Source: Paludibacter sp. | GTDB lineage: Bacteria; Bacteroidota; Bacteroidia; Bacteroidales; Paludibacteraceae | Direction of reading: 5' to 3' | Length of the DNA: 64,000 nt | Assembly: GCA_028692715.1 (NCBI GenBank) | Contig: JAQUWU010000002.1 | Coordinates: 23,437 to 87,436 of the forward strand | In this document: piece by piece, positions 2,361 to 63,403 of the stretch | Numbering within the stretch: the stretch's first letter is position 1 | Layout: every line of letters starts with the position of its first letter | The notes under the pieces: model-generated | Seen by the model: only the letters and a program-made list of their open reading frames with translations | What the model was told of the DNA's origin: nothing | The model's database searches: none | Program-made: the position numbers and the translations under genes

Positions 2361-4172
2361 CTACTTATATTGTTCTTTTAACTCCTCGTACCATTTTTTC
2401 ATAACGAAAAATGCTTTTTTCTTTTCTCCTTTATCTGATATCAACCCTTTACGATTAAAATCGTCCTGAATATCACGAAGTTGTCGACGAGGAGAAAGAA
2501 AATCTTTCAGAATCCAGGGTGTAGTTCCGGCAAGACCTGGCATTCGTTTCAGCATATTTATGTTGTGAACATATAGATCTTCTTGAAATTCTTCGGTAAA
2601 ACGTTCGGTTTTATCACCATGGAAGCCATAAAGTGCTCCACCTCCGAATTCGCTGACAATAACTGGTTTATCTGCCGAAAATGTCCAGTTTACACGATCG
2701 CATTTTTCGGGTAAGCCATCGTACCAACCAACATACTGATTGAAACTCATTACATCCATAACTTTGACTAACTCATCTTTTACGGTCATAAGTCCCGGTT
2801 TTACTTCATCCTTTTCCATGGCAGCGCCCACCAATCTTACCGGGTCAAGTTCACGGGTTTTGTTTGCTAGTCGTGTAAGAAAATTTAATCGGGCATCACT
2901 ATGTGGCGTTTCGTTTGCAATGGACCAGATAATGATATTACAACGGTTTTTATCACGTGTAATCATATCGGTCAATTGATTTTCTGCATTTTTGTAGGTT
3001 TCTGGGTTTTCCCATTGTATTGTCCAGTAAACCGGAATTTCAGACCAAACCATTAAACCCATGCGCTCTGCTTGACGCACCATTTGTTCGTTGTGAGGAT
3101 AATGTGCTAACCGAACAAAATTACAACCCATATCTTTTGCCCATTGTAATAAGGTAATATCTTCTTCTTTTGAGAAAACTCGTCCCTGACGGAAGGCGGC
3201 TTCTTCATGAATGCTGATTCCGCGGCAAAAAATAGGTTTCTCGTTTAACAATATTTGAGTTCCCTTTGTTTCAATGGTTCTCAATCCTATTTCATCATTA
3301 AGAATGTCATTGTCAAGAGCGATATTGAGCTTGTATAATTTTGGATTTTCAGGTGTCCAGTAAGTTGGTTTTACTTTACATTCAAAAGCAGCATATCCTT
3401 TTTCGTCAGTTGTAAGGGTTTGATTTATTTTTAATTCAGGGATGTTGATTTTTACGGTTTTATTTAATTGTTTCCCATCTAACTGAACCCATCCAGAAAG
3501 AGTGTTTTTTTCTCCCTTTTTAAGTTGCACGTAATAATCACGTACAAAGGTTACTGGTGTCTCAATTAAGGTTACCTGACGGGTAATTCCACCATAATTC
3601 CACCAATCAAAATTAACCGTTGGTACTGCATCAAAAGCTCTTTTGTTATCTACTTTTACAACCAATGAATTTTCACCGCTTTTGAGCAGGTTTGTTACTT
3701 CAAAATTGAATGGAGTAAAACCACCTATATGTTTTCCGATTTCTTTTCCATTTACAAAAACGATAGCTTCATAATTTACAGCTCCAAAACGAAGAAAAAC
3801 TCTTTTATCTTCTTTCGATTTGTACAGAAACCGATTTCGATACCATACTGTACCTTCATAATAATAAAGTTCTGGGCGTTGAGTGTTCCAGTCACCCGGC
3901 ACCATTAATGTTTTATCGGTAGAGAAGTTATATTCTTGTAACGCACTTTTATTAGTATTTACTTTGTCTTCTCCATACCCATTTTTCATAGGATTACGGC
4001 GATAATCGTAATAGCCGTTTTCAAATGGATCTATTATAGTTCGCCAAAGTCCATCTAACGAAATAACTTCGCGTGATTCAGCATTAATAATTTGTGGAGT
4101 GGTTTGTGCAGAAAAAAAAACCGGACTTGAAATTGCTAAAAACAAAAGAATGTGTTTTAAAAATCTTTGCAT
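2361..4172 (-). CDS. glycoside hydrolase family 2 protein (beta-galactosidase/beta-glucuronidase-like), secreted
   Basis: 603 aa. N-terminal signal peptide. GH2 sugar-binding and TIM-barrel signatures (WSIANE..., NETPH acid/base region). Confidence 0.8.
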   Translation of the reverse strand: MQRFLKHILLFLAISSPVFFSAQTTPQIINAESREVISLDGLWRTIIDPFENGYYDYRRNPMKNGYGEDKVNTNKSALQEYNFSTDKTLMVPGDWNTQRPELYYYEGTVWYRNRFLYKSKEDKRVFLRFGAVNYEAIVFVNGKEIGKHIGGFTPFNFEVTNLLKSGENSLVVKVDNKRAFDAVPTVNFDWWNYGGITRQVTLIETPVTFVRDYYVQLKKGEKNTLSGWVQLDGKQLNKTVKINIPELKINQTLTTDEKGYAAFECKVKPTYWTPENPKLYKLNIALDNDILNDEIGLRTIETKGTQILLNEKPIFCRGISIHEEAAFRQGRVFSKEEDITLLQWAKDMGCNFVRLAHYPHNEQMVRQAERMGLMVWSEIPVYWTIQWENPETYKNAENQLTDMITRDKNRCNIIIWSIANETPHSDARLNFLTRLANKTRELDPVRLVGAAMEKDEVKPGLMTVKDELVKVMDVMSFNQYVGWYDGLPEKCDRVNWTFSADKPVIVSEFGGGALYGFHGDKTERFTEEFQEDLYVHNINMLKRMPGLAGTTPWILKDFLSPRRQLRDIQDDFNRKGLISDKGEKKKAFFVMKKWYEELKEQYK

Positions 4173-37997: not shown

Positions 37998-38113
37998 CAA
38001 AACTAATTGATAATTGATAATTTATAATTAAAAACAGCGGTTTTTATATTATAAATTATGTCTGTAAGAAACATAATTATTAATTAAGTATTATCAATTT
38101 CTAATTAAAATTT

Positions 38114-38196: not shown

Positions 38197-38277
38197 CAAA
38201 ACGATGAGATGATGTGTTGATATGATGATTGTTTTAATTATCACATTTTCAAATTATCACATTATCACATCAAAATT

Positions 38278-39718: not shown

Positions 39719-39724
39719 TCAATA

Positions 39725-39800
39725 GTAAACAAGTATACGAGTAAACGAGTAAACGGTATAAATACCTGCCTCGTTTACTTGTTAACTTTTTACTCGTTTA
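39725..39800 (+). terminator. complex tuf terminator (nested hairpins built from GTAAACGAG repeats, then A/T runs)
   Basis: AACAAGTATACGAGTAAACGAGTAAACGG...CCTCGTTTACTTGTT...TACTCGTTTACTT. Confidence 0.5.
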
Positions 39801-39815
39801 CTTAAAAAAAAATAC

Positions 39816-46766: not shown

Positions 46767-46851
46767 ATATATCAAAATTCCTTACGGGAACTTGAAATCT
46801 TTTATTCCAATTGTAAATTATCAATTGTAAATTGTAAATCAAAAAAAAGTT

Positions 46852-51240: not shown

Positions 51241-51609
51241 GTAAGCATCCCAAATCAACCGTATTGTTTTGCACAAAAAAAAACGGACTATCATTAGAAT
51301 TTCTCTAGATAGTCCGTTTTATATTTTTGGTTATAGTTTCGGTAGAAACTCCTCCCAGTTTATTGGAGTTCTCAGTTTAGGAATTTTCTCCAGTGTTGTA
51401 GTTAACCATTTGTGTGGTTCAACACCAGCTTGCAGGCAGCTGCCTAATAGTGTGTAGAAAATGCAATTATCTTCCGCACCGCTGTCATTGCCTGAGAACA
51501 GGTAATTCTTTCGACCGAGTGTGATTGGTCGAATGGAATTTTCTACACCATTGTTGTCGATATTGAAATATCCTTCTGTACCTACATGAGGACTTTTGTG
51601 AGTTATCAC
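51241..51609 (-). mobile_element. IS66-family element remnant: 3' end of the transposase (TnpC C-terminal about 90 aa), plus downstream hairpin and putative terminal repeat (GTAAGCATCC at 51241)
   Basis: Minus-strand ORF 51331-51609 reads ...GTEGYFNIDNNGVENSIRPITLGRKNYLFSGNDSGAEDNCIFYTLLGSCLQAGVEPHKWLTTTLEKIPKLRTPINWEEFLP. This matches the conserved IS66 TnpC C-terminus (IDNN..AEN.IRP...GRKN(W/Y)LF...YSLI.T.K.NG..P..YL..VL..I). The upstream part of the gene is absent. Confidence 0.7.
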
Positions 51610-52100
51610 TATCGTTGGAACGAGGAAGAGGCTTACAAGTTATTAAAGTGCAGAATTGAGTTAGAAGATTTCTCGGATAAAAGAGCCAAAGCAGTGAAGC
51701 AAGACTTTTTTGCAAAAGTCTTTTTAATGACACTTTGTGCAGCTTACACTTACCCGATTGACGAAAAGGTTCGGAAGGAATATAAAGCTGATGAGAACAG
51801 GAAACACGATCAAAAGATAAATAGGACAAATGCAATAGCAATGACAAAAGACATTTTGATTGCAGTATTTATCCTAAAAGAATATAAAAAAGCATTAGAG
51901 GCATTCGATGACGTTGTTTCCAAGACAAGAGAAATCATTCGACCAGGAAGATCCGTGGACAGAAATCATCGACCGAAAAAGCTTTACTCTATGAATTACA
52001 AAAAGTTATAGCTTATTACTAACTAAACGACATTGATATACAAATGATATACAAAAAAATAGAAATAGCCTGCTGCAGGCAGGTTCTATTTCTTTTGTCA
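51586..52100 (+). mobile_element. IS4/IS5-superfamily (DDE_Tnp_1) transposase C-terminal fragment abutting the IS66 remnant, with downstream hairpin
   Basis: Plus-strand ORF 51586-52011 reads ...VSYHYRWNEEEAYKLLKCRIELEDFSDKRAKAVKQDFFAKVFLMTLCAA. This is the characteristic Y..RW.IEE.F+.LK block carrying the DDE glutamate. It overlaps the IS66 fragment by about 20 bp on the opposite strand. Terminal hairpin AATAGAAATAGCCTGCTGCAGGCAGGTTCTATTTCT at about 52053-52090. Confidence 0.65.
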
Positions 52101-54417: not shown

Positions 54418-55491
54418 ATGGAACATGATTATTGTATAATAATGGCTGGTGGCGTTGGAAGTCGCTTTTGGCCATTTAGTCGGAACAATCGCCCCAAGCA
54501 ATTTCTTGACTTTTTTGGAACCGGCCGTTCGCTTTTACAAATGACATTTGATAGAATGCGTCACTTGGTACCTGCAGAAAATATATTGATAGTATCTAAT
54601 GTCATTTATAAGGATTTGATTTTGGAACAATTACCCGAAATTAAAGCTAATCAGGTACTTCTTGAACCAAATCGTAGAAATACAGCACCTTGTATTGCAT
54701 ATGCAGTGAATAGAATTAAGTCCATTACCAATAAAGCCAATATTATTGTTGCTCCATCGGATCATTTGATATTGAAAGAAGTTGACTTTTTGGAAACAAT
54801 TAAAATTGGAATCGATTTTGTCGAAAATAATGATAGTCTTTTGACGCTGGGTATTAAGCCAAGTAGACCGGAAACAGGATATGGTTATATTCAAATAGAT
54901 GAAGGTGATTCAGCTTTACGCAGAGTAAAAACCTTTACCGAGAAACCAAATGCCGAATTAGCACAAATTTTCTATGAAACGGGAGAATTCTTCTGGAATT
55001 CAGGCATTTTCCTATGGAATCTACAAACAATTGTTAAAGCTTTTGATGAACTTTTACCCGAAGTGGCAACTAAATTCAACAGCGGAAAAGAATTTTTCAA
55101 TACTGATAAAGAACAGGCTTTTGTCGATGATATGTATCAATCTTGTCCAAATATTTCCATCGATTACGGAATTATGGAAAAAGCATCGAATGTACATGTG
55201 TTGTGTTCCGATTTTGGTTGGACTGATTTGGGAACATGGGGCTCACTATACGAAATGTCGCCAAAAGATGAACATGAAAATGTAACCCTGAAATGTAAAA
55301 CCGTTTTTTACGAAAGTGAAAATAATATTGTGGCATTACCAAACCAGAAATTAGCGGTGATTCAGGATTTGAATGGCTATATTGTGGCCGAATCCGATAA
55401 TGTGTTATTGATTTGCAAATTGGAAGATGAACAAAAAATTCGCCAGTATGTGAATGATATTAATGTGAAGTTTGATGGGAAATACAGTTGA
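54418..55491 (+). CDS. manC: mannose-1-phosphate guanylyltransferase
   Basis: 357 aa. MAGGVGSRFWP nucleotidyl-transferase motif and a GDP-mannose pyrophosphorylase-like body. Confidence 0.85.
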   Translation: MEHDYCIIMAGGVGSRFWPFSRNNRPKQFLDFFGTGRSLLQMTFDRMRHLVPAENILIVSNVIYKDLILEQLPEIKANQVLLEPNRRNTAPCIAYAVNRIKSITNKANIIVAPSDHLILKEVDFLETIKIGIDFVENNDSLLTLGIKPSRPETGYGYIQIDEGDSALRRVKTFTEKPNAELAQIFYETGEFFWNSGIFLWNLQTIVKAFDELLPEVATKFNSGKEFFNTDKEQAFVDDMYQSCPNISIDYGIMEKASNVHVLCSDFGWTDLGTWGSLYEMSPKDEHENVTLKCKTVFYESENNIVALPNQKLAVIQDLNGYIVAESDNVLLICKLEDEQKIRQYVNDINVKFDGKYS

Positions 55492-55548
55492 CAGTTAACA
55501 GTTAACAGTTATCAGTTAACAGTTATCAGTTTACAGTAATCAGTGATT
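55486..55548 (+). repeat. tandem heptamer array, about 9 units of (A/T)CAGTTA, starting at the manC stop codon
   Basis: ACAGTTG ACAGTTA ACAGTTA ACAGTTA TCAGTTA ACAGTTA TCAGTTT ACAGTAA TCAGTGA. Confidence 0.85.
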
Positions 55549-55605
55549 CGTTTGTAAGTGGTCATTGTTTGGATGATCTGAATTGTTTCTATTATTGTTT
55601 AAAAA

Positions 55606-55613
55606 TATATTTG
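55606..55613 (+). promoter_or_regulatory. -7-like box TATATTTG immediately upstream of the four-helix-bundle mini-gene
   Basis: TAnnTTTG match only 5 nt before the ATG, implying a leaderless or very short-leader transcript if it is used. Confidence 0.25.
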
Positions 55614-55617
55614 TATT

Positions 55618-55977
55618 ATGATTGAAGGTAGCTTGGTTTATAAGAAGGCATATTCATTTGCAATAAGAATTGTGAAAGCGTATCAATTTCTTCAAACTGA
55701 GAAAAAGGAATTTGTAATTTCTAAACAGATTCTAAGATGTGGCACTTCAATAGGTTCAAACATTGCAGAAGCAAATGGTGGAATTTCAATGAGTGATTTT
55801 TCTGCAAAAATGAGTATCGCTTATAAGGAATGTTTGTAAACAAAATATTGGCTTTCACTTTTGAAAGATACAAATTACATTGAAGAAAATACTTATAAAA
55901 CGATGTATAACGATGCTGATGAAATTGCTAAAATGTTATTTTCAATTTTAAAATCGACTCGAATAAATAAAAAATAG
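55618..55977 (+). pseudogene. four-helix-bundle protein gene (PF05635, 23S rRNA intervening-sequence protein / Avd-like) interrupted by an in-frame TAA at 55837-55839
   Basis: MIEGSLVYKKAYSFAIRIVKAYQFLQTEKKEFVISKQILRCGTSIGSNIAEANGGISMSDFSAKMSIAYKECL*TKYWLSLLKDTNYIEENTYKTMYNDADEIAKMLFSILKSTRINKK. The SIGSNIAEA core and the E(T)-YWL..L block match the family. The stop sits where Glu (GAA) is expected. Confidence 0.6.
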
Positions 55978-55980
55978 AAT

Positions 55981-56062
55981 TAACAACTAATCACAGCTAA
56001 CTGCTAACTGTTAACTGTTAACTGCTAACTGCTAACTGCTAACTGCTAACTGCTAACTGATT
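55981..56062 (+). repeat. tandem heptamer array, 9-11 units of TG(C/T)TAAC. This is the reverse complement of the 55486-55548 array (GTTAACA/GTTAGCA).
   Basis: ...AGCTAAC TGCTAAC TGTTAAC TGTTAAC TGCTAAC TGCTAAC TGCTAAC TGCTAAC TGCTAAC TGATTAT. It ends 9 nt before the next ATG. Confidence 0.85.
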
Positions 56063-56071
56063 ATTGAAATT

Positions 56072-56344
56072 ATGGGATTTTTCAAATTATATAAACCACG
56101 CAAATACGACTACCGTTATATTTATTACGACTCCAAAAAGGAGGCGCAGAAGGATCGTGAAAAACGTTTAGCTGAAGAGGGTGAGAATGGGGCTGAATTT
56201 AGATCTACCATTAAAAGAGGAACTTTTCGGGCTGAAGCGGCAAAGAATAAGAGCTCACGTAGTCGTGAAATAGGAAAATCGAATATCCGATTAGTACTTA
56301 TAATATTCTTTTTGTTGCTGTTAGCCTATTACTTGTTGAAATAA
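56072..56344 (+). CDS. small hypothetical protein with basic N-terminal region and C-terminal transmembrane helix, immediately upstream of mutL
   Basis: 90 aa (MGFFKLYKPRKYDYRYIYYDSKKEAQKDREKR...RLVLIIFFLLLLAYYLLK). 9-nt gap to mutL. No family recognised. Confidence 0.4.
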   Translation: MGFFKLYKPRKYDYRYIYYDSKKEAQKDREKRLAEEGENGAEFRSTIKRGTFRAEAAKNKSSRSREIGKSNIRLVLIIFFLLLLAYYLLK

Positions 56345-56353
56345 AAAACTTAC

Positions 56354-58186
56354 ATGAGCGATATTATTCATTTGTTACCCGATTCGGTAGCCAATCAAAT
56401 AGCAGCCGGCGAGGTAATCCAACGTCCGGCTTCTGTTTTGAAAGAATTAGTTGAAAATGCTATTGATGCGGGAGCAACGAATATTAAAATAGTGATAAAG
56501 GATGCCGGTCGAACACTGATTCAAGTGATTGATAACGGAAAAGGAATGAGCGAAACGGATGCCCGAATGGCTTTCGAGCGTCATGCCACGTCAAAAATTT
56601 CCAGTGCCGACGACTTGTTCACCATTCGTACTATGGGTTTTCGTGGCGAAGCACTGGCTTCAATAGCTGCAGTGGCTCAGGTTGAACTTCGTACGCGAAG
56701 AGAAGATGACGAGCTTGGAGTTTTGATTGAAATTGCGGGAACGCGCGTGTTCAAGCAGGAATCTGTACAATGCGACAGTGGAACTTCATTTCAGGTGAAA
56801 AATTTATTCTTTAATGTGCCTGCACGTCGTCGTTTTCTGAAAAGTGATAATGTAGAGAAAGGTCATTTGCTGAATGAATTTTACCGGATTGTATTGGTTA
56901 ACACCGAAGTATCCTTTTCGTTTTATGATGGAGACGATGAAATTTTTCAACTTTCGGCTTCCAATATAAAAATACGAATAGAGAATATTTTTGGAAAAAA
57001 CAGCAAAAAACGCTGGCAACAACAGTTGCTTAATATCGAAACATCTACCAACCTGATTAATATAACAGGTTATGTGGGAAAACCTGAATTCGCTCAAAAA
57101 TCAGCTGTACAATATTTCTTTGTCAATGGGCGATATATGCGTCATCCTTATTTCCACAAGGCGGTTATGTTGGCTTATAGCCAAATGATTCAGGCAACGG
57201 AGAGTCCAAACTATTTCATTTATTTCGAAGTTGATCCGCAAACTATCGACATTAATATTCACCCTACAAAAACCGAGATTAAATTCGAAAACGAACAGGC
57301 AATTTGGTCTATTCTTTCGGCTGCTGTAAAAGAATCGTTAGGTAAATTTAATGTTGTTCCGTCCATTGATTTCGATCAGGAAGGTGCCATTGATATTCCT
57401 TCGAATGTAAATGTCGAGAATGTACGTCCTCCACAAACAAATTTTAATCCGAATTATAATCCATTTACAACGAGTTACAAAAGACCCACATTGGACTGGG
57501 AACAGTTGTATGGTGGGTTTGAAAAGAAAAAGGAAGAGCCTGATTCACCTTCTGAAGGACAACCGTTTCAGAGTTCAATGTCTATTGAAAGCAATGATCA
57601 GCAACAAACTTTCGAAAATATTGAATCACGTTCAGAGAATTTTCAGTTTAAAAACCGTTATATTCTTACTGGAATTAAATCGGGGATGTTAATGATTGAT
57701 CAACAGCGTGCTCACACCCGTGTTTTGTTCGATTTATTTATGATTCAAATGGAGAACAGAAAAGCGGTTTCTCAACAGATTCTTTTCCCGGAAACGCTTG
57801 AACTGACTCCCGACGATGCATTGATTTTCGAACAAATGATGCCCGATTTAAACCGACTGGGATTTGAATTTGAAAAGATGGAATTAAACTCCTATAGCGT
57901 AAAAGGAGTTTCGTCACATGTGGGAACAGCAAGTGTGGTGAATTTATTGCTGGAAATGCTTGATAAAACCAAAAATACCGCTGAAGATATATCCGCCAGT
58001 CTGCATGAAACAATTGCATTGACTCTTGCCGAAACGGCTTCTCTTAAATCGGGTCAACGACTTACTTCCGAAGAAATGAGTGACCTTATTGATCGACTTT
58101 TTGCGAGTGCTAACCATAATTTCACTCCGGATGGGAAGAAAATTATGACCATTTTTACCGGCGAAGAATTGGATAAAAGGTTTTAA
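56354..58186 (+). CDS. mutL: DNA mismatch repair protein MutL
   Basis: 610 aa. GHKL ATPase motifs (VKELVENAIDAGA, DNGKGM, GFRGEAL) and a C-terminal dimerisation domain. Confidence 0.95.
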   Translation: MSDIIHLLPDSVANQIAAGEVIQRPASVLKELVENAIDAGATNIKIVIKDAGRTLIQVIDNGKGMSETDARMAFERHATSKISSADDLFTIRTMGFRGEALASIAAVAQVELRTRREDDELGVLIEIAGTRVFKQESVQCDSGTSFQVKNLFFNVPARRRFLKSDNVEKGHLLNEFYRIVLVNTEVSFSFYDGDDEIFQLSASNIKIRIENIFGKNSKKRWQQQLLNIETSTNLINITGYVGKPEFAQKSAVQYFFVNGRYMRHPYFHKAVMLAYSQMIQATESPNYFIYFEVDPQTIDINIHPTKTEIKFENEQAIWSILSAAVKESLGKFNVVPSIDFDQEGAIDIPSNVNVENVRPPQTNFNPNYNPFTTSYKRPTLDWEQLYGGFEKKKEEPDSPSEGQPFQSSMSIESNDQQQTFENIESRSENFQFKNRYILTGIKSGMLMIDQQRAHTRVLFDLFMIQMENRKAVSQQILFPETLELTPDDALIFEQMMPDLNRLGFEFEKMELNSYSVKGVSSHVGTASVVNLLLEMLDKTKNTAEDISASLHETIALTLAETASLKSGQRLTSEEMSDLIDRLFASANHNFTPDGKKIMTIFTGEELDKRF

Positions 58187-58325
58187 AATCTAACTTCTAG
58201 TTGTCGAGGAACGAGACACTAAAACGTTAATCTTTAAAGATCTATTATTTACACATGAAATACCCATGTACAAAATAGCAATTTTGGACACACAAGGGCT
58301 TCCGATAGTTATCGGGATATAAAAA

Positions 58326-58414
58326 TACAAAACACTTTCTGTTCCCTCTCTTATTCCCCCTCTTTCTCCCTCTCCTTTTGGAGATGGTTGGGGTGAGGTC
58401 AGGGTTAGGGGCAG
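58326..58414. other. GC-rich mirror-like segment: 32-nt pyrimidine tract (CCCTCTCTTATTCCCCCTCTTTCTCCCTCTCC), then TTTT, then a purine/G-rich tract (GGAGATGGTTGGGGTGAGGTCAGGGTTAGGGGCAG)
   Basis: Strong strand-asymmetric composition, atypical for this AT-rich genome. Contains the TCTCC-TTTT-GGAGA hairpin and a GGGTTAGGGG motif. Lies 20 nt upstream of the HAD gene start. Confidence 0.5.
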
Positions 58415-58433
58415 ATTAATCCAATTATAAACA

Positions 58434-59087
58434 ATGAAATCCCTACTAATATTTGACCTTGATGGTACTTTATTGGACACAGTTGCCGATTTGGCAGTTA
58501 GTACCAATTACGCACTGAATTTTTGTGGTTTCCCTTCGCACGAAATAGAGGCTTATCGCAAATTTATAGGTAATGGCATTAATAATTTATTTGAACGGGC
58601 TTTGCCAATAGGACAAAAAACACAGGAAAATGTGTTGAAAATTAGAAAGCCTTTCTTGGAGTATTATGGTGAGCATAGTTCTGAACTAACCGTACCTTAT
58701 CCCGGAATGTCTCAGTTGTTAAAGCAAATTCAGTCGGCGGGGTTAAAAATAGCAGTTGCTTCCAATAAATATCAGTTGGGCACCGAAACACTGATTCATC
58801 GCTTTTTCCCGGAAATAAATTTTACGGCAGTATTTGGTCAGCGTGATGGAATTCCTATAAAACCGGATGCGCAAATAGTGTATGATATTCTCACAATTGC
58901 AGGTGTTGATAAATCAGAAGCATTTTATGTAGGAGATTCGGGTGTTGATATGCAAACTGCCATAAATGCCGGTGTTGAAACTATAGCAGTAACCTGGGGT
59001 TTTCGCCCTGTGGCAGAATTAGAAGCTTACCATCCAAAATATATGGTAGATAAAGCAGAAGAAATATGGGAAATATTAAACGCATAA
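58434..59087 (+). CDS. HAD-superfamily hydrolase (phosphoglycolate phosphatase-like)
   Basis: 217 aa. DLDGTLLDT motif I. Later motifs SN..., GDSGVD. Confidence 0.85.
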   Translation: MKSLLIFDLDGTLLDTVADLAVSTNYALNFCGFPSHEIEAYRKFIGNGINNLFERALPIGQKTQENVLKIRKPFLEYYGEHSSELTVPYPGMSQLLKQIQSAGLKIAVASNKYQLGTETLIHRFFPEINFTAVFGQRDGIPIKPDAQIVYDILTIAGVDKSEAFYVGDSGVDMQTAINAGVETIAVTWGFRPVAELEAYHPKYMVDKAEEIWEILNA

Positions 59088-59090
59088 AAC

Positions 59091-59120
59091 AAAAAAACCG
59101 CTTATTAAGCGGTTTTTTTG
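59091..59120. terminator. bidirectional terminator between HAD hydrolase and acyl-CoA dehydrogenase
   Basis: AAAAAAACCGCTTATTAAGCGGTTTTTTT. Confidence 0.7.
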
Positions 59121-59139
59121 TTTCTTATTCTCAAAAAGT

Positions 59140-60852
59140 TTATTGAACTTTATAAACATCAATTTTATCTACATCAAATTTTTTGATAAATGCAGCGTGT
59201 CGACGAACTTCCACTTCGCCAAAGTTCAAGTAAACTTCAGCTGATTTACGGAACAGATCTTCTTTGTCGCGAGAAGCATCAATCAACAACAAATATCCCA
59301 TAATGATATGGCCAGCCATTTCCACCATACGACGTGCTTGAAAATCAATATATTCATTGTTTTTCGTTTCGTTTACTCTGGCAACTGTTGTTTCAAACAA
59401 ATTTGTCATAATTTGTAAGCGTTTGCGTAAGGAAGTAAATTCAGGATTGATAGCTTGATTGTCGTAATCACGAATCATTTTCAGATAATTTCCTGTAGTT
59501 ACAAAGCGAATAGCTGCAACAACTTGAAGTTGCGAAGTTCCTTCATAAATTGTCATGATACGAGCATCACGGAAATGACGTTCGCAGGCATAATCTTTCA
59601 TAAATCCAGAACCGCCATGAACCTGAATAGAATCATAAGCATTTTGATTCGCATATTCGCTGGTAAACATTTTCAGCATTGGAGTTAATGCATCTGCCAA
59701 TTTTGAATATTCTTTGTATTCTGCTTTTTCTTCAGGAGTTAGCTTTCTTTCCGCTTCAATAGCTTCGTAAGCTTTGTAAATATCAACAAAACGAGTAGTT
59801 TCGTACAATAATGCACGTGAAGCATCGAGTTTAGCTTTTATTACCGAAACCAATTCGTAAACAGCAGGGAATTCGATAATTGCTTTTCCAAATTGTTTAC
59901 GGTCACGGGCGTAATTTAAAGCCTCGGTATAAGCAGCCGACGAAAGTCCAACCGATTGAGCACCAATACCCAAACGAGCACCGTTCATCAACGACATTAC
60001 ATATTTAATCAAACCCATACGGCGGGTTCCGACTAATTGTGCAGGAGTATTATTGAAAACGAGTTCACAAGTTGGTGAACCTTTAATTCCTAATTTATTT
60101 TCTATACGGCGAACTAACACAGTATGATCATGTTTGTTGTCAGCTACAAAATAGGACAACCCTCTACCGTCATTTGTGCCTTCTTCCGAACGAGCTAAAA
60201 CCAGTTTGATTTGAGCATCACCATTTGTAATGAAACGTTTCACTCCGTTCAGATACCATATACCATCTTTTTCATTGAAAGTAGCTTTCAACTGTACGGC
60301 TTGCAAATCCGAACCTGCATCAGGTTCCGTGAGATCCATTGAGCAGGTAGCACCTTCACAAACGCGAGGCAAATATTCATTTTTTATTTCATCTGAAGCA
60401 AATTCTGCAATCGTTTCGGCACAATCCTGCAGCCCCCAGATGTTAGCAAAGCCGGCATCGGCACGGGCAACCATTTCGCCTGACATTACATAAGCAATAA
60501 AAGGAAAATTCAAACCGCCGTATTGACGAGGTAAGGTAATTCCGTAAACTCCGGCTTGCATCAATGCTTCGTGATTTTCCTGAGTTCCACGAGCGTAAAT
60601 TACGCGGCTGTTTTCAACCTGTGGCCCCTCGTGATCAACACTTTCTGCATTTGGTGCAATAATATCATTACAAATTCCCCCGATAATTTCGAGAACTTTT
60701 TCGTAATTGTCAACTGCATCTTCAAAATCGCGGGATGCATAATCATATTTATCTTTATCAGCAAAGTTGCGCTCTTTGAGGTCAACAATTTTCTTCATCA
60801 AGGGATGCGAAAGCTGAAATTTTATGGCAGGATTGTCGTTATAAAAGTTCAT
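59140..60852 (-). CDS. acyl-CoA dehydrogenase (long form with C-terminal extension)
   Basis: 570 aa. ACAD N/M/C domains (catalytic-base region YEGTSQLQ...). Downstream of etfBA. Confidence 0.85.
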   Translation of the reverse strand: MNFYNDNPAIKFQLSHPLMKKIVDLKERNFADKDKYDYASRDFEDAVDNYEKVLEIIGGICNDIIAPNAESVDHEGPQVENSRVIYARGTQENHEALMQAGVYGITLPRQYGGLNFPFIAYVMSGEMVARADAGFANIWGLQDCAETIAEFASDEIKNEYLPRVCEGATCSMDLTEPDAGSDLQAVQLKATFNEKDGIWYLNGVKRFITNGDAQIKLVLARSEEGTNDGRGLSYFVADNKHDHTVLVRRIENKLGIKGSPTCELVFNNTPAQLVGTRRMGLIKYVMSLMNGARLGIGAQSVGLSSAAYTEALNYARDRKQFGKAIIEFPAVYELVSVIKAKLDASRALLYETTRFVDIYKAYEAIEAERKLTPEEKAEYKEYSKLADALTPMLKMFTSEYANQNAYDSIQVHGGSGFMKDYACERHFRDARIMTIYEGTSQLQVVAAIRFVTTGNYLKMIRDYDNQAINPEFTSLRKRLQIMTNLFETTVARVNETKNNEYIDFQARRMVEMAGHIIMGYLLLIDASRDKEDLFRKSAEVYLNFGEVEVRRHAAFIKKFDVDKIDVYKVQ

Positions 60853-60912
60853 AATATTTTTCTTTTTGAAGTTACAGTAGTTATAGAAGTAATGTTGAAG
60901 TTATGTTTGCTA

Positions 60913-61287
60913 TTATTTTTCATTTTTATCAGTAAGAATCTTTTCACAATAATTATTTAAAGACTTACTAGTTTCTTCTAATAGTTGATTCAATTTTTCA
61001 GAATTAACGTTATCAGTATATTTTAAATCTTTTGAAAGAATAATATAGTATCTGCATTCTTCAAGACTTGCTTGAGCTATATTGAAAAATCTTAATTTCT
61101 CTGTTTTGCTCAATCTTTTATATCCTTCTGCAATATTTGCAGGAATAGATATTGAGGCTCTGCGAAATTGTGATACTAAGCCGAAAAGTTCATTTTTAGG
61201 ATAATTTGCGGTGAGATTATACATCTCTAAAACAAAACGGTGTGCTTGTTGCCACATTCTTAAATCAATAAATGAACTTGTTGCCAT
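60913..61287 (-). CDS. four-helix-bundle protein (PF05635, 23S-IVS/Avd-like), intact copy, inserted between etfA and acd
   Basis: 124 aa. MATSSFIDLRMWQQAHRFVLEMYNLTANYPKNELFGLVSQFRRASISIPANIAEGYKRLSKTEKLRFFNIAQASLEECRYYIILSKDLKY... Confidence 0.8.
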   Translation of the reverse strand: MATSSFIDLRMWQQAHRFVLEMYNLTANYPKNELFGLVSQFRRASISIPANIAEGYKRLSKTEKLRFFNIAQASLEECRYYIILSKDLKYTDNVNSEKLNQLLEETSKSLNNYCEKILTDKNEK

Positions 61288-61313
61288 AACTTCTTAACTT
61301 CAATAACGTCTCT

Positions 61314-62333
61314 TTACTTCGAGTTTTTCTTATAGTATTTAATCATTTTTGGTAATACCTCTTCAATATTTCCGGTTATTACATAATCGGCAATTGCGTT
61401 GATAGGCGCTTTAGGGTCATTGTTAATAGCAATAATCATGGCACTCTCTTGCATTCCTGCAATGTGTTGGATTTGACCCGAAATACCACATGCAATATAC
61501 AGTTTTGGACGAACGGTTGTTCCAGTTTGACCAATTTGACGTTCGTGTTCTGTAAAACCGGCATCTACAGCAGCACGTGAAGCACCCACTTCGCCACCTA
61601 ATGTTTCAGCTAAATCATGTAATAATTTAAAGTTTTCAGCACTTCCAACACCGTAACCACCCGAAACAATAATGGGTGAACCTTTAATGTTTAGTTTCGA
61701 TTTTTCCATGTGGCGTTCGATAACTTCCACAACGAAATCGGTATCGGCAACATATTTTGAAACGTCTAGCTTGTGCGTTTTACCAGTAAATTTAGCATCT
61801 AGAATTTCCTTTTTCATTACTCCCTCACGAACGGTTGCCATTTGTGGGCGACAATCCGGATTTACAATGGTGGCAACAATGTTACCCCCAAAAGCAGGAC
61901 GAATTTGATAAAGTAAGTTTTCGTAGATTTTTCCTTGTTTTTTGTCTTCGTAAGTTCCAATTTCCAGGGAAGTACAATCAGCAGTTAAACCACTAAATAA
62001 AGCAGAAGAAACACGAGGACCTAAATCGCGGCCAATAGAAGTAGCTCCCATCAAAGCAACTTGTGGTTTTTCTTCTTTAAAAATATTCACCAATAAAGAA
62101 GTATGTGGTAATGTAGTGTAAGGAGCAAGGCGTTTGTCATCGGCAATATGCAGAACATCAACGCCAAAAGGGAAAACCTGAGCACCAACTCCATCTAATT
62201 TATAGCCAGCAGCAACTGCTTCCAGTTTACAGTTTAATTGTTTTGCAAGGCTACGACCTTTCGTAAGTAATTCTAAGCTAACATCGCCTACAATGCCATC
62301 TTCAATTTCGAGATATACAAATATATTGTTCAT
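61314..62333 (-). CDS. etfA: electron transfer flavoprotein subunit alpha
   Basis: 339 aa. FAD-binding C-terminal domain (RPKLYIACGISGQIQHIAGM). Confidence 0.93.
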   Translation of the reverse strand: MNNIFVYLEIEDGIVGDVSLELLTKGRSLAKQLNCKLEAVAAGYKLDGVGAQVFPFGVDVLHIADDKRLAPYTTLPHTSLLVNIFKEEKPQVALMGATSIGRDLGPRVSSALFSGLTADCTSLEIGTYEDKKQGKIYENLLYQIRPAFGGNIVATIVNPDCRPQMATVREGVMKKEILDAKFTGKTHKLDVSKYVADTDFVVEVIERHMEKSKLNIKGSPIIVSGGYGVGSAENFKLLHDLAETLGGEVGASRAAVDAGFTEHERQIGQTGTTVRPKLYIACGISGQIQHIAGMQESAMIIAINNDPKAPINAIADYVITGNIEEVLPKMIKYYKKNSK

Positions 62334-62339
62334 GGTAAA

Positions 62340-63212
62340 TTATCCTATCGTGTGGTTAGCAATTAATTCTATCATTAAGTCTTCAATTTCAACATTCGAT
62401 GCTGTAAGATGTTTGCTTTCTTTGGCTGTAAACACTACATTTTCGATTTGTTTAACCTTGGTAGGTGAACCGCTGAGACCCAACCATTGAACATCATGTT
62501 CGATGTCGTTAACGCCCCACTCGGTAATATTAAGGTAAGAATGATTGTCGTAAAAATTAGTATAATCATCACCGGCTTCCTGTCTTTCCGAAGGAGTAGC
62601 GGCACGTTTATATTTCATGGTGAGTTTTGCGTGACGAGGACGACATTCTGCTGCTGATCCATTTACTGTTACAACTAATGGAAGAGGAGCTTTTACTATT
62701 TCAATACCACGTTCAAGGCGGCGTTTTACCGTAATATTGTTGTTCGATAAATCCAGGATTTCTTCTGCATACGTAATTTGATTTAATCCAAGTTTTTCGG
62801 CTACCTGTGGACCAACCTGAGCTGTATCACCATCAATTGCCTGACGACCGCAAATAATTAGGTCGATTTTTCCCATTTTACGGATGGCACAAGCCAACGC
62901 ATAAGATGTTGCAAGTGTATCAGACCCGGCGAATTCACGTCCGCTTAATAAAAAACCACCATCTGCACCCCGATACATACTTTCGCGAATAATTTCGGCA
63001 GCTCGAGCAGGTCCCATGGTAAGAATATGAACTGTAGCGCCTTTAATTTTACTTTTTAAGCGGAGCGCCTGTTCCAACGCATTCAAATCTTCAGGGTTAT
63101 AAATGGCAGGAAGCGCAGCACGGTTTACCGTTCCATCAGCTTTCATTGCGTCTTTACCCACATTGCGTGTATCGGGTACTTGCTTTGCAAGAACAACAAT
63201 TTTAAAACTCAT
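62340..63212 (-). CDS. etfB: electron transfer flavoprotein subunit beta
   Basis: 290 aa. MSFKIVVLAKQVPDT N-terminus typical of EtfB. Confidence 0.93.
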   Translation of the reverse strand: MSFKIVVLAKQVPDTRNVGKDAMKADGTVNRAALPAIYNPEDLNALEQALRLKSKIKGATVHILTMGPARAAEIIRESMYRGADGGFLLSGREFAGSDTLATSYALACAIRKMGKIDLIICGRQAIDGDTAQVGPQVAEKLGLNQITYAEEILDLSNNNITVKRRLERGIEIVKAPLPLVVTVNGSAAECRPRHAKLTMKYKRAATPSERQEAGDDYTNFYDNHSYLNITEWGVNDIEHDVQWLGLSGSPTKVKQIENVVFTAKESKHLTASNVEIEDLMIELIANHTIG

Positions 63213-63403
63213 TTTTTATCAATTATAATTAGTATTTCGATTGAATAATTTTGTTTGCGGAGCTTTTTTCTGCTGTTTTGAGAAAAGAACATTTATGATT
63301 CAAGCTTAGAAAAAAGACTCGCAAAAATAGCAATTTTTATTTAAGTTTCAACTTTTTTACTGCACAAAATTCTAAAAATGTGCATAAAATTTATGTAGTT
63401 ACA

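Follow-up and report, generated by a model that had tools for sequence, protein, structure and literature searches.

A small gene of the PF05635/TIGR02436 four-helix-bundle (4HB) family lies between etfA and the acyl-CoA dehydrogenase gene (acd) of a Paludibacter sp. genome, bracketed by short tandem repeats that are inverted from one side of the gene to the other. We analysed this gene within 64,000 nucleotides (nt) of contig JAQUWU010000002.1 (positions 23,437 to 87,436; the window hereafter, with coordinates counted from its first letter), together with its relatives and other loci of the family. The same bracket recurs around family genes in other operons, with a fixed purine polarity and with the gene mostly following the direction of its neighbours; presence of the gene is patchy among relatives, and its protein evolves under purifying selection. 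The reading that we favour, with moderate confidence, is that the gene and its repeat arms form a promoterless cassette built like an intervening sequence of 23S ribosomal RNA (rRNA), placed in an intercistronic spacer and looped out of the transcript by its arms.

Inverted tandem arrays bracket the target gene and its family

The target gene, which would form the loop of the cassette, is an intact 124-amino-acid (aa) open reading frame (ORF) at 60913-61287 on the minus strand. It matches PF05635 with an E-value of 2.7e-36 and 124.5 bits (cut-off 33.8), covering positions 2-105 of the 106 in the profile, and TIGR02436 with an E-value of 2.4e-34 and 117.8 bits (cut-off 24); membership of the family thus stands above the curated cut-off and over the full domain. 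A database entry, the "four helix bundle protein" of a Paludibacter sp. metagenome-assembled genome, is 100% identical to it. The initial annotation of this DNA had placed an intact PF05635 gene of this length between etfA and acd, and both profile matches and coordinates agree.

The upstream arm occupies the 26-nt spacer from the etfA stop to the cassette ATG (61288-61313, minus strand) and reads AGAGACGTTATTGAAGTTAAGAAGTT-ATG on the coding strand. It carries GAAGTTA at 61295-61301 and 61287-61293, the second of which overlaps the start codon (GAAGTT-ATG). The downstream arm fills the 60-nt spacer from the cassette stop (60913-60915) to the acd ATG (60853-60912, minus strand) and is of TAACTTC type on the coding strand; its plus-strand units are GAAGTTA at 60868 and 60897, GTAGTTA at 60877 and GAAGTAA at 60886. 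In orthologues this arm has 3-12 units of the kind. The two spacers therefore hold four GAAGTTA copies, two per strand and inverted, as the initial annotation had reported. The flank strings that it quoted are present, the left one at 60868-60905, 2 nt away from the coordinates given for it, and the right one at 61286-61308. It had also cautioned that GAAGTTA might be no more frequent than base composition predicts. This holds for the window as a whole (16 copies observed against 11.6 +/- 3.6 expected, not significant), but 4 of the 16 cluster in these two spacers.

Scored for gapped inverted repeats over 62-nt flanks, the target comes out highest of 48 genes in the window (z 4.7, shuffle p 0.007), and the best gene outside the PF05635 family reaches z 2.8. 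The longest perfect arms measure 9 nt (60895-60903 with 61295-61303, and 60897-60905 with 61285-61293). As RNA, the two flanks form a duplex of -23.8 kcal/mol, compared with -12.0 +/- 3.0 kcal/mol for shuffles, and each arm folded alone has a minimum free energy (MFE) of 0. When the whole 481-nt cassette RNA is folded, it is the pairing of the two arms that closes its MFE structure (z -4.2). The inverted-repeat signal at the target is real but modest.

A second family gene in the window, at 55618-55977 on the plus strand, has a nucleotidyl-transferase gene on one side and, on the other, a small ORF that lies upstream of mutL. Its match to PF05635 has an E-value of 1.5e-32 when the in-frame TAA at 55837-55839 is taken as GAA, and the family motif suggests Glu at that position; with this TAA, the copy is a pseudogene as assembled. 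Its upstream arm (55484-55557, plus strand) consists of tandem (A/T)CAGTTA heptamers (ACAGTTA x7.7 by Tandem Repeats Finder), and its downstream arm (55980-56066, plus strand; GCTAACT x9.1) of nine TAACTG(C/T) units ending in TAACTGA 12 nt ahead of the ATG at 56072. The arms are 81% complementary over 73 nt (55485-55557 and 55980-56052), and the fold of the whole cassette closes by the arm stem with z -8.3. A second same-family copy with inverted (A/T)CAGTTA flanks, which the initial annotation had also described, is thereby confirmed. We found it by reading short ORFs in intergenic gaps; searching the window with the target by tblastn and phmmer returned no paralogue, the second copy being too diverged. 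The flank pattern is beyond chance in both cassettes, weakly at the target and very strongly at the second copy. A Bacteroidetes -7 motif, TATATTTG, at 55606-55613 ends 5 nt before the ATG of the second copy; the window holds 114 such motifs, and this one may be there by chance.

PF05635/TIGR02436 is a very large family (5,266 matches in one search). A metagenome scan with an alignment of 15 members gave 80 loci, and flank statistics were drawn from 79 loci with at least 60 nt of flank on each side: 71 of the 80 metagenome loci, seven relatives and the target. Compared with shuffles, which are an imperfect null for low-complexity DNA, the best ungapped inverted repeat between the flanks reached a z of at least 4 in 44 of the 79 loci and of at least 7 in 34, and the flank RNA duplex a z of -3 or lower in 41, with energies down to -60 to -107 kcal/mol. 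Several lower-scoring loci have arrays on both sides by eye. The arms have a median length of 30 nt and a maximum of 94 nt. A period of 7 nt is the commonest among the arrays (19 loci), followed by 8 (seven loci), 9 (five) and 10 (five), and the unit sequence depends on lineage (GAAGTTA, GGAGTCA, AGTAGTC and others). The arms lie close to the ORF, with median distances of 15.5 nt on the start-codon side and 9.5 nt on the stop-codon side, and in 11 loci the stop codon itself belongs to the first unit of the downstream array. Every armed locus has a purine-rich upstream arm (44/44; median 0.71).

Family genes also tend to run with their neighbours. They share the orientation of the upstream neighbour at 50 of 59 loci and of the downstream neighbour at 47 of 52; 32 of 39 are co-oriented with both and none of the 39 is opposed to both, across median spacers of 55 and 66 nt. 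Host junctions include sufB-sufC (three loci), trpB-trpA, livG-livF, tpiA, ssb and hbd-acd, and 13 loci are the etfA-acd junction of distant Bacteroidales. The target stands at the reduced end of this strong family pattern, with arrays among the shortest in its lineage.

Ten loci (L086, L090, L099, L102, L116, L117, L123, L124, L134 and L137) have a conserved, non-repetitive core at the inner ends of the arms, which reads ..AAGGAC(A/G)ATAG.. ahead of the ATG and recurs as its complement past the stop. In this subgroup the core hints at a sequence-specific site.

Operon context of the cassette

The host unit reads etfB-etfA-cassette-acd on the minus strand (59140-63212), with etfB at 62340-63212, etfA at 61314-62333 (stop 61314-61316) and acd, of 570 aa, at 59140-60852 (ATG 60850-60852), all assigned by Pfam. 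The target ORF is set 26 nt past the etfA stop and 60 nt ahead of the acd ATG. Upstream of etfB lies a Bacteroidetes -7 motif (TAnnTTTG, 63322-63329, minus strand), and after acd the operon is closed by a bidirectional terminator at 59087-59123, a perfect 18-nt palindrome with 17 pairs, a 3-nt loop and T runs on both strands. The coding strand of both cassette spacers, when scanned, held neither a sigma-70-like promoter nor a Bacteroidetes -7 motif, and an intrinsic-terminator scan of 60853-60912 and 61288-61313 found no terminator-like site. Because the spacers lack both kinds of signal, while a promoter motif precedes etfB and a terminator follows acd, the target gene is predicted to lie within the etfB-etfA-acd transcription unit and to be co-transcribed with it. 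The cassette itself was considered as a terminator and rejected, since it has no T run. The G+C content of the window is 35%.

State of the etfA-acd slot in relatives

A scan with EtfA, one genome per species, gave 80 loci, of which 79 hold both etfA and acd. The gap between the two genes is below 30 nt in 34 of the 79 (down to 4-5 nt, as in the TAA-C-ATG of L005), 30-70 nt in seven (a short spacer), 70-260 nt in 27 (a gene-less spacer) and above 260 nt in 11 (an inserted gene or a long spacer). The statement of the initial annotation that these genes are normally adjacent is thus right for about half of the relatives. With 41 of 79 gaps below 70 nt, the target gene is an insertion relative to the usual state, in line with the spacing that the annotation had expected.

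The gene-less spacers of 70-260 nt are mostly hairpins that fold better than shuffles, and many have heptamer arms whose unit is specific to the genome (TAGTTTA, ATTTACG, GTAGTAG, or a G+C-rich type). A 4HB gene occupies six of the 11 long gaps (L013, L021, L023, L025, L039 and L062), the rest having unrelated genes or no ORF; L057 has its 4HB gene between etfB and etfA. All seven of these 4HB genes in etf operons of species-level relatives have purine-rich tandem units on the 5' side (GAAGTTA, AGTAGTC, GGAGATA, GTAGTGA, GAAGTAAA or AGTAGAT) and their reverse complements on the 3' side. Orthologues of the Paludibacter lineage retain 2 to 12 units, of GAAGTTA type ahead of the gene and of TAACTTC type after it. 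When the closest homologues of the target in a collection of 5.8 billion proteins were located (94% to 66% identity), all eight of eight were in the etfA-acd slot. One genome, Paludibacter sp. 221 (L175), is arranged as etfB-4HB-etfA-4HB-acd, with PF05635 cassettes at 1018-1392 and 2501-2878 that differ in their unit: AAGAAAT/TATTTCT around the gene between etfB and etfA, and GAAGTTA/TAACTTC around the other. Arm lengths can be very unequal, as in L171, where the downstream arm (2890-3043) has about 12 alternating units, (TGTAACTTC / TGTAATTTC)n, and the upstream arm about four.

On a neighbour-joining tree of EtfA and Acd, the states of the slot are interleaved within a single Paludibacter clade. 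L034, with a 98-nt hairpin, and L039, with the gene, are 93% identical in the flanking genes; between the etfA stop and a point a few bases ahead of the acd ATG, no alignment of the two is possible. The etfA-acd junction is a fast-evolving site.

In more distant Bacteroidales (L038, L042, L050 and L068) the junction holds unrelated genes and no arrays, the inserts being ORFs of 249-278 aa (MORN/TonB-C-like by eye) and a membrane protein of 170 aa. The slot accepts other inserts too.

Selection, loss and exchange

Compared with its orthologue in L023, the target protein has a ratio of nonsynonymous to synonymous substitution rates (dN/dS) of 0.056; judged by this ratio, the cassette protein is under purifying selection and functional. 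Decay is common as well: L013 has a frameshift, and the second copy of the window a nonsense codon. Within the Paludibacter lineage, the 4HB proteins diverge roughly in step with their hosts, a pattern that agrees with vertical descent and many losses.

The 4HB proteins of five slot-mates (L152, L021, L039, L025 and L062) are only 50-54% identical to the target, even where the host is close: L152 shares about 90% of EtfA over a fragment of about 99 residues and 86% of Acd, and L021 shares 85% of EtfA. L173, with EtfA at 75%, has a 4HB protein 71% identical to the target. Close hosts with a 50-54% identical protein, set beside L173, point to at least two gene lineages in one slot; a neighbour-joining tree of this 120-aa protein is not robust.

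Among the window, L161 and L023, the cassette has dS of 0.46-0.76 and dN of 0.024-0.036, two- to four-fold below the flanking genes (dS 1.3-2.8, dN 0.05-0.10), a contrast that is only qualitative because flank dS is saturated. In other pairs, cassette dN equals or exceeds that of the flanks. The raised identity between the window and L023 reaches into the last ~50 nt of etfA, and the end of etfA reads AAC-TCG-AAG-TAA in the window, L005, L008, L013 and L023, compared with AAC-AGT-AAA-TAG for the same residues in other relatives. The tract of raised identity and the shared etfA ending suggest homologous recombination in the flanking genes, by which the allele of the window, L161 and L023 was probably exchanged laterally.

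Comparison of filled sites (the window, L023 and L039) with L005, L011, L012 and L034 showed no target-site duplication flanking the arms. The cassette has no transposase or integrase gene, and among the eight homologues looked up (94% to 66% identity) there is no near-identical copy of the target at another locus. Recent transposition was rejected on the faithfulness of the homologues to the etfA-acd slot. These patterns describe a cassette lineage that, as far as the compared sequences tell, is a long-term resident of its slot, often lost and occasionally exchanged or replaced. The initial annotation had called it a mobile or formerly mobile mini-element. Of that proposal, the discrete cassette stands, with its gain, loss, replacement and lateral exchange; movement within a genome does not, as we see no hallmark of transposition and no copy elsewhere. 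The annotation had further held that residence at the same place in relatives at all depths, with unrelated flanks, would speak against mobility. This applies in part: relatives do carry the gene in the same slot, but their flanks are related in architecture. Those flanks are not terminal repeats of the transposon type but arrays of tandem 7-10-nt units that differ between cassette lineages.

Comparison with known systems

The closest parallel is the intervening sequence of 23S rRNA. In Coxiella it is 428 nt long and carries an ORF of the same family in the loop of a 28-bp terminal stem, which RNase III cuts mid-way, leaving a working fragmented rRNA (PMC4990558). The intervening sequences of Leptospira and Coxiella (PMC4990558) share with our cassette the ORF family, a length of ~430-460 nt, the position of the ORF in a stem loop, a patchy distribution and the absence of a mobility gene. 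Complementary termini enclose the ORF in both, weakly at the target and strongly in the second copy and the family. The host is different: the cassette lies in the spacer of an mRNA operon, between etfA and acd, and not in helix 25 or 45 of 23S rRNA. No rRNA match was found in 55000-62000, and none of 20 array-less family loci that we scanned is in rRNA (0/20). The arms are tandem arrays of 7-10-nt units, a build that we have not seen described for intervening sequences, with a strict purine-rich upstream polarity, and RNase III cleavage, documented for the rRNA case, is here a presumption. No Rfam family reached its gathering score over 55000-62000; matches below threshold fell at ~59040-59170, on the terminator hairpin, and at 58745-58807.

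Tandem TAACTGA heptamers have been described upstream of start codons in Beggiatoaceae, Cyanobacteria and five Bacteroidetes, including Paludibacter propionicigenes (MacGregor 2015, PMC4679880). That study reports direct repeats and a single indirect repeat, and does not mention the S23, intervening-sequence or four-helix-bundle family. Like those repeats (PMC4679880), the arrays here are intergenic tandem heptamers in the 'forward' sense, a short way upstream of a start codon: TAACTG(C/T) x9 and TAACTGA in the second copy, and a variant, TAACTTC, at the target, its last unit ~20 nt before the acd ATG. They differ in forming inverted pairs around a PF05635 gene and in a unit that varies by lineage.

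The protein is also related to Avd of diversity-generating retroelements, with a homologous four-helix-bundle fold. The target matches the Avd model NF033474 with an E-value of 2.8e-8 and 34 bits (cut-off 80) and the PHROG 'Avd protein of DGR' with 7.7e-8. In a search limited to the immediate neighbours, etfA and acd, we found no adjacent reverse transcriptase, template or variable repeat. A retroelement remnant was rejected on the Avd score below cut-off and the lack of an adjacent reverse transcriptase. The closest solved relatives, 2GSC and 2RLD, are structural-genomics entries with five chains each.

Transcribed intergenic inverted repeats that act as RNA hairpins are known from the Correia elements of Neisseria, which are processed by RNase III, and the enterobacterial repetitive intergenic consensus (ERIC) elements. 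The gene-less hairpins of the etfA-acd slot, and one at 39724-39803 in the window, look like them. Correia and ERIC elements have a consensus sequence and no ORF, and Correia elements have target duplications, whereas the arrays here are tandem and lineage-specific. Integron cassettes share a small, promoterless, co-oriented ORF, an upstream promoter and an imperfect palindrome. Integron attC is one palindrome, on the 3' side of the ORF, in contrast to two flanking arms that are each unstructured alone, and the hosts here are conserved housekeeping operons. The position of the arms on both sides of the ORF was the reason to reject an integron cassette; neither an integrase nor a cassette array was noted, and no dedicated attC or integrase search was made. 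PADLOC gave no match, and a viral-contig scan with the family alignment gave no relatives.

The searchable literature treats PF05635/TIGR02436 as Avd-like, intervening-sequence-associated or strain-variable. It yielded no description of inverted tandem arrays bracketing such genes in operon spacers, with the coverage of subscription journals incomplete and a prior description possible. The inverted-array bracket around PF05635 genes in operons is apparently an undescribed architecture.

A transcript-level reading and its alternatives

The cassette has no promoter of its own, follows the orientation of its operon and has arms of fixed polarity that pair with each other, with the base of the stem between the stop of one host gene and the start of the next. 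These features argue for a role at the level of the transcript. In the reading that we prefer, the cassette would be transcribed by read-through only, from the etfB promoter. Its arms, which do not fold alone, would pair into one long stem that loops out the ORF, and the base of this stem would bring the etfA stop beside the acd start. On the model of the 23S intervening sequences with an ORF of this family, RNase III would most likely be the enzyme that cuts the stem; cleavage would set the cassette RNA free with the host cistrons still usable, which would make the insert tolerable. Tandem units could pair in many registers, and the stem should thus survive slippage. Loss of the cassette would leave a hairpin or nothing, and exchange between lineages would probably proceed by recombination in the flanking genes. 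Co-transcription, formation of the stem in vivo, RNase III cleavage and any role of the protein are inferred; what the sequences show directly is the architecture with its recurrence, polarity and co-orientation, the purifying selection and the patchy presence.

Should the rRNA element be a single example of a wider cassette design, found also in sufBC, trpBA, livGF and etfBA-acd, the question becomes testable in culturable Bacteroidetes, and the TAACTGA-type heptamer arrays of Beggiatoaceae, Cyanobacteria and Bacteroidetes would gain a context. Cassettes and leftover hairpins make fast-evolving, repeat-rich spacers that can break assemblies and mislead operon and terminator prediction. The value of the target, itself a reduced example, is as a pointer to the general architecture. 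One could envision a bolder version, which we regard as speculative and rather improbable, in which PF05635 cassettes are widespread "mRNA intervening sequences": selfish or domesticated ORFs that inhabit operon junctions and 23S loops and stay invisible to the host through register-tolerant stems. They would either be excised by RNase III or keep stop-start translational coupling across a 400-nt insert, and the Avd-like protein might recognise its own arrays and aid the copying or exchange of the cassette.

Several observations weigh against a looped-out RNA. Mismatches between the arms show no sense-strand bias towards G.U (34 G.U against 40 A.C, p 0.56), and sense and antisense duplexes have equal energies (p 0.51); with no strand bias, the arms could owe their complementarity to processes acting on DNA instead of selection on RNA. 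Template-switching correction of quasi-palindromes is a known process, and could maintain the complementarity of the arms. At the target, the stem is short and interrupted, with perfect arms of at most 9 nt and a duplex at the weak end of the family, and it may no longer work. About 40% of the sampled family members have no detectable arms. The query alignment was dominated by etf-slot sequences, which makes the metagenome sample a biased one and no census of the family.

An alternative, unlikely in our view, is that the cassette is a mobile element acting at the DNA level. The inverted arrays would form hairpins or cruciforms in DNA, as substrate for insertion, excision or exchange, either in the manner of a MITE (miniature inverted-repeat transposable element) with a passenger gene or through structure-specific recombination, and RNA pairing would be incidental. 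The missing wobble bias on the sense strand agrees with this, as do the patchy presence among close relatives, the two gene lineages in one slot, a cassette allele in the window, L161 and L023 that is younger than its flanks, the gene-less hairpins of the same slot and a nearby IS66 fragment (51331-51609). The comparison of filled and empty sites, with no target-site duplication, and the lack of a transposase or integrase speak against it. Arm sequences that vary by cassette lineage make a sequence-specific transposase unlikely, and eight homologues in the same slot, at 94% to 66% identity, give no sign of movement to a new locus. Shared terminal repeats in near-identical dispersed copies, the mark of a MITE, were not seen: the two copies of the window use different units and have no detectable protein similarity by phmmer or tblastn. 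Homologous recombination is a better fit than transposition to the raised identity of the window and L023, which runs into the 3' end of etfA, and a pure DNA palindrome leaves the strict purine polarity and the co-orientation with the operon unexplained.

Alternatively, though we think this doubtful, the arrays could be binding sites of a multimeric nucleic-acid-binding protein, possibly the 4HB protein itself, that serve autoregulation or tune downstream translation, as proposed for the TAACTGA repeats. Avd is a nucleic-acid-binding protein, and the 4HB family is homologous to Avd of diversity-generating retroelements. The GAAGTTA unit is kept across hosts with EtfA 75-95% identical while its copy number ranges from 2 to 12, and the units of the family have a loose motif, R-R-A-G-T-Y-A, in common. 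The downstream array ends just before the next ATG, as TAACTGA repeats do (PMC4679880). Such sites are hard to reconcile with gene-less hairpins that persist without a local 4HB gene, and binding alone gives no reason for a second array in reverse complement.

It is highly improbable that an ordinary accessory gene merely stands beside unrelated simple repeats of a kind general in the intergenic DNA of these genomes: other arrays and hairpins in the window lack a 4HB gene (38004-38107, 39724-39803, 46809-46839) and GAAGTTA is not enriched window-wide, but coincidence fits the data poorly when 44 of 79 loci from unrelated samples show the association, with arms always complementary, of fixed polarity and abutting the ORF, and when no flank-tested gene of the window outside the PF05635 family shows it.

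Other features of the window

The hairpin at 39724-39803 (plus strand), between tuf and a tRNA-Trp gene, consists of tandem 8-mers, (GAGTAAAC)n, a loop and (GTTTACTC)n, with an MFE of -28.2 kcal/mol (z -5.7). What follows is a run of A rather than of T; the hairpin has the build and purine polarity of the cassette arms. Between tRNA-Thr and tRNA-Tyr, a second gene-less hairpin (38004-38107, plus strand) is A+T-rich, has TAATTGA tandem arms and folds more weakly (z -2.9); a four-fold array of ATTATCAC lies at 38237-38270, before tRNA-Gly. The rpoB-rpoC spacer holds AATTGTA x4.4 at 46809-46839, with no obvious inverted partner and a fold z of -0.9.

Between mutL and a HAD-family hydrolase gene, a G+C-rich stretch of C-tracts and G-tracts at 58330-58415 is hairpin-like and resembles the G+C-rich etfA-acd hairpins of L002, L010, L022 and L024. 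The IS66 fragment is the C-terminal part of a transposase of that family (51331-51609, minus strand; PF03050/PF13817). It overlaps a plus-strand ORF of 141 aa without a Pfam match, and both (51331-52011) lie in the 1.6-kb gap after rpoC, in a region that looks like a decayed insertion sequence.

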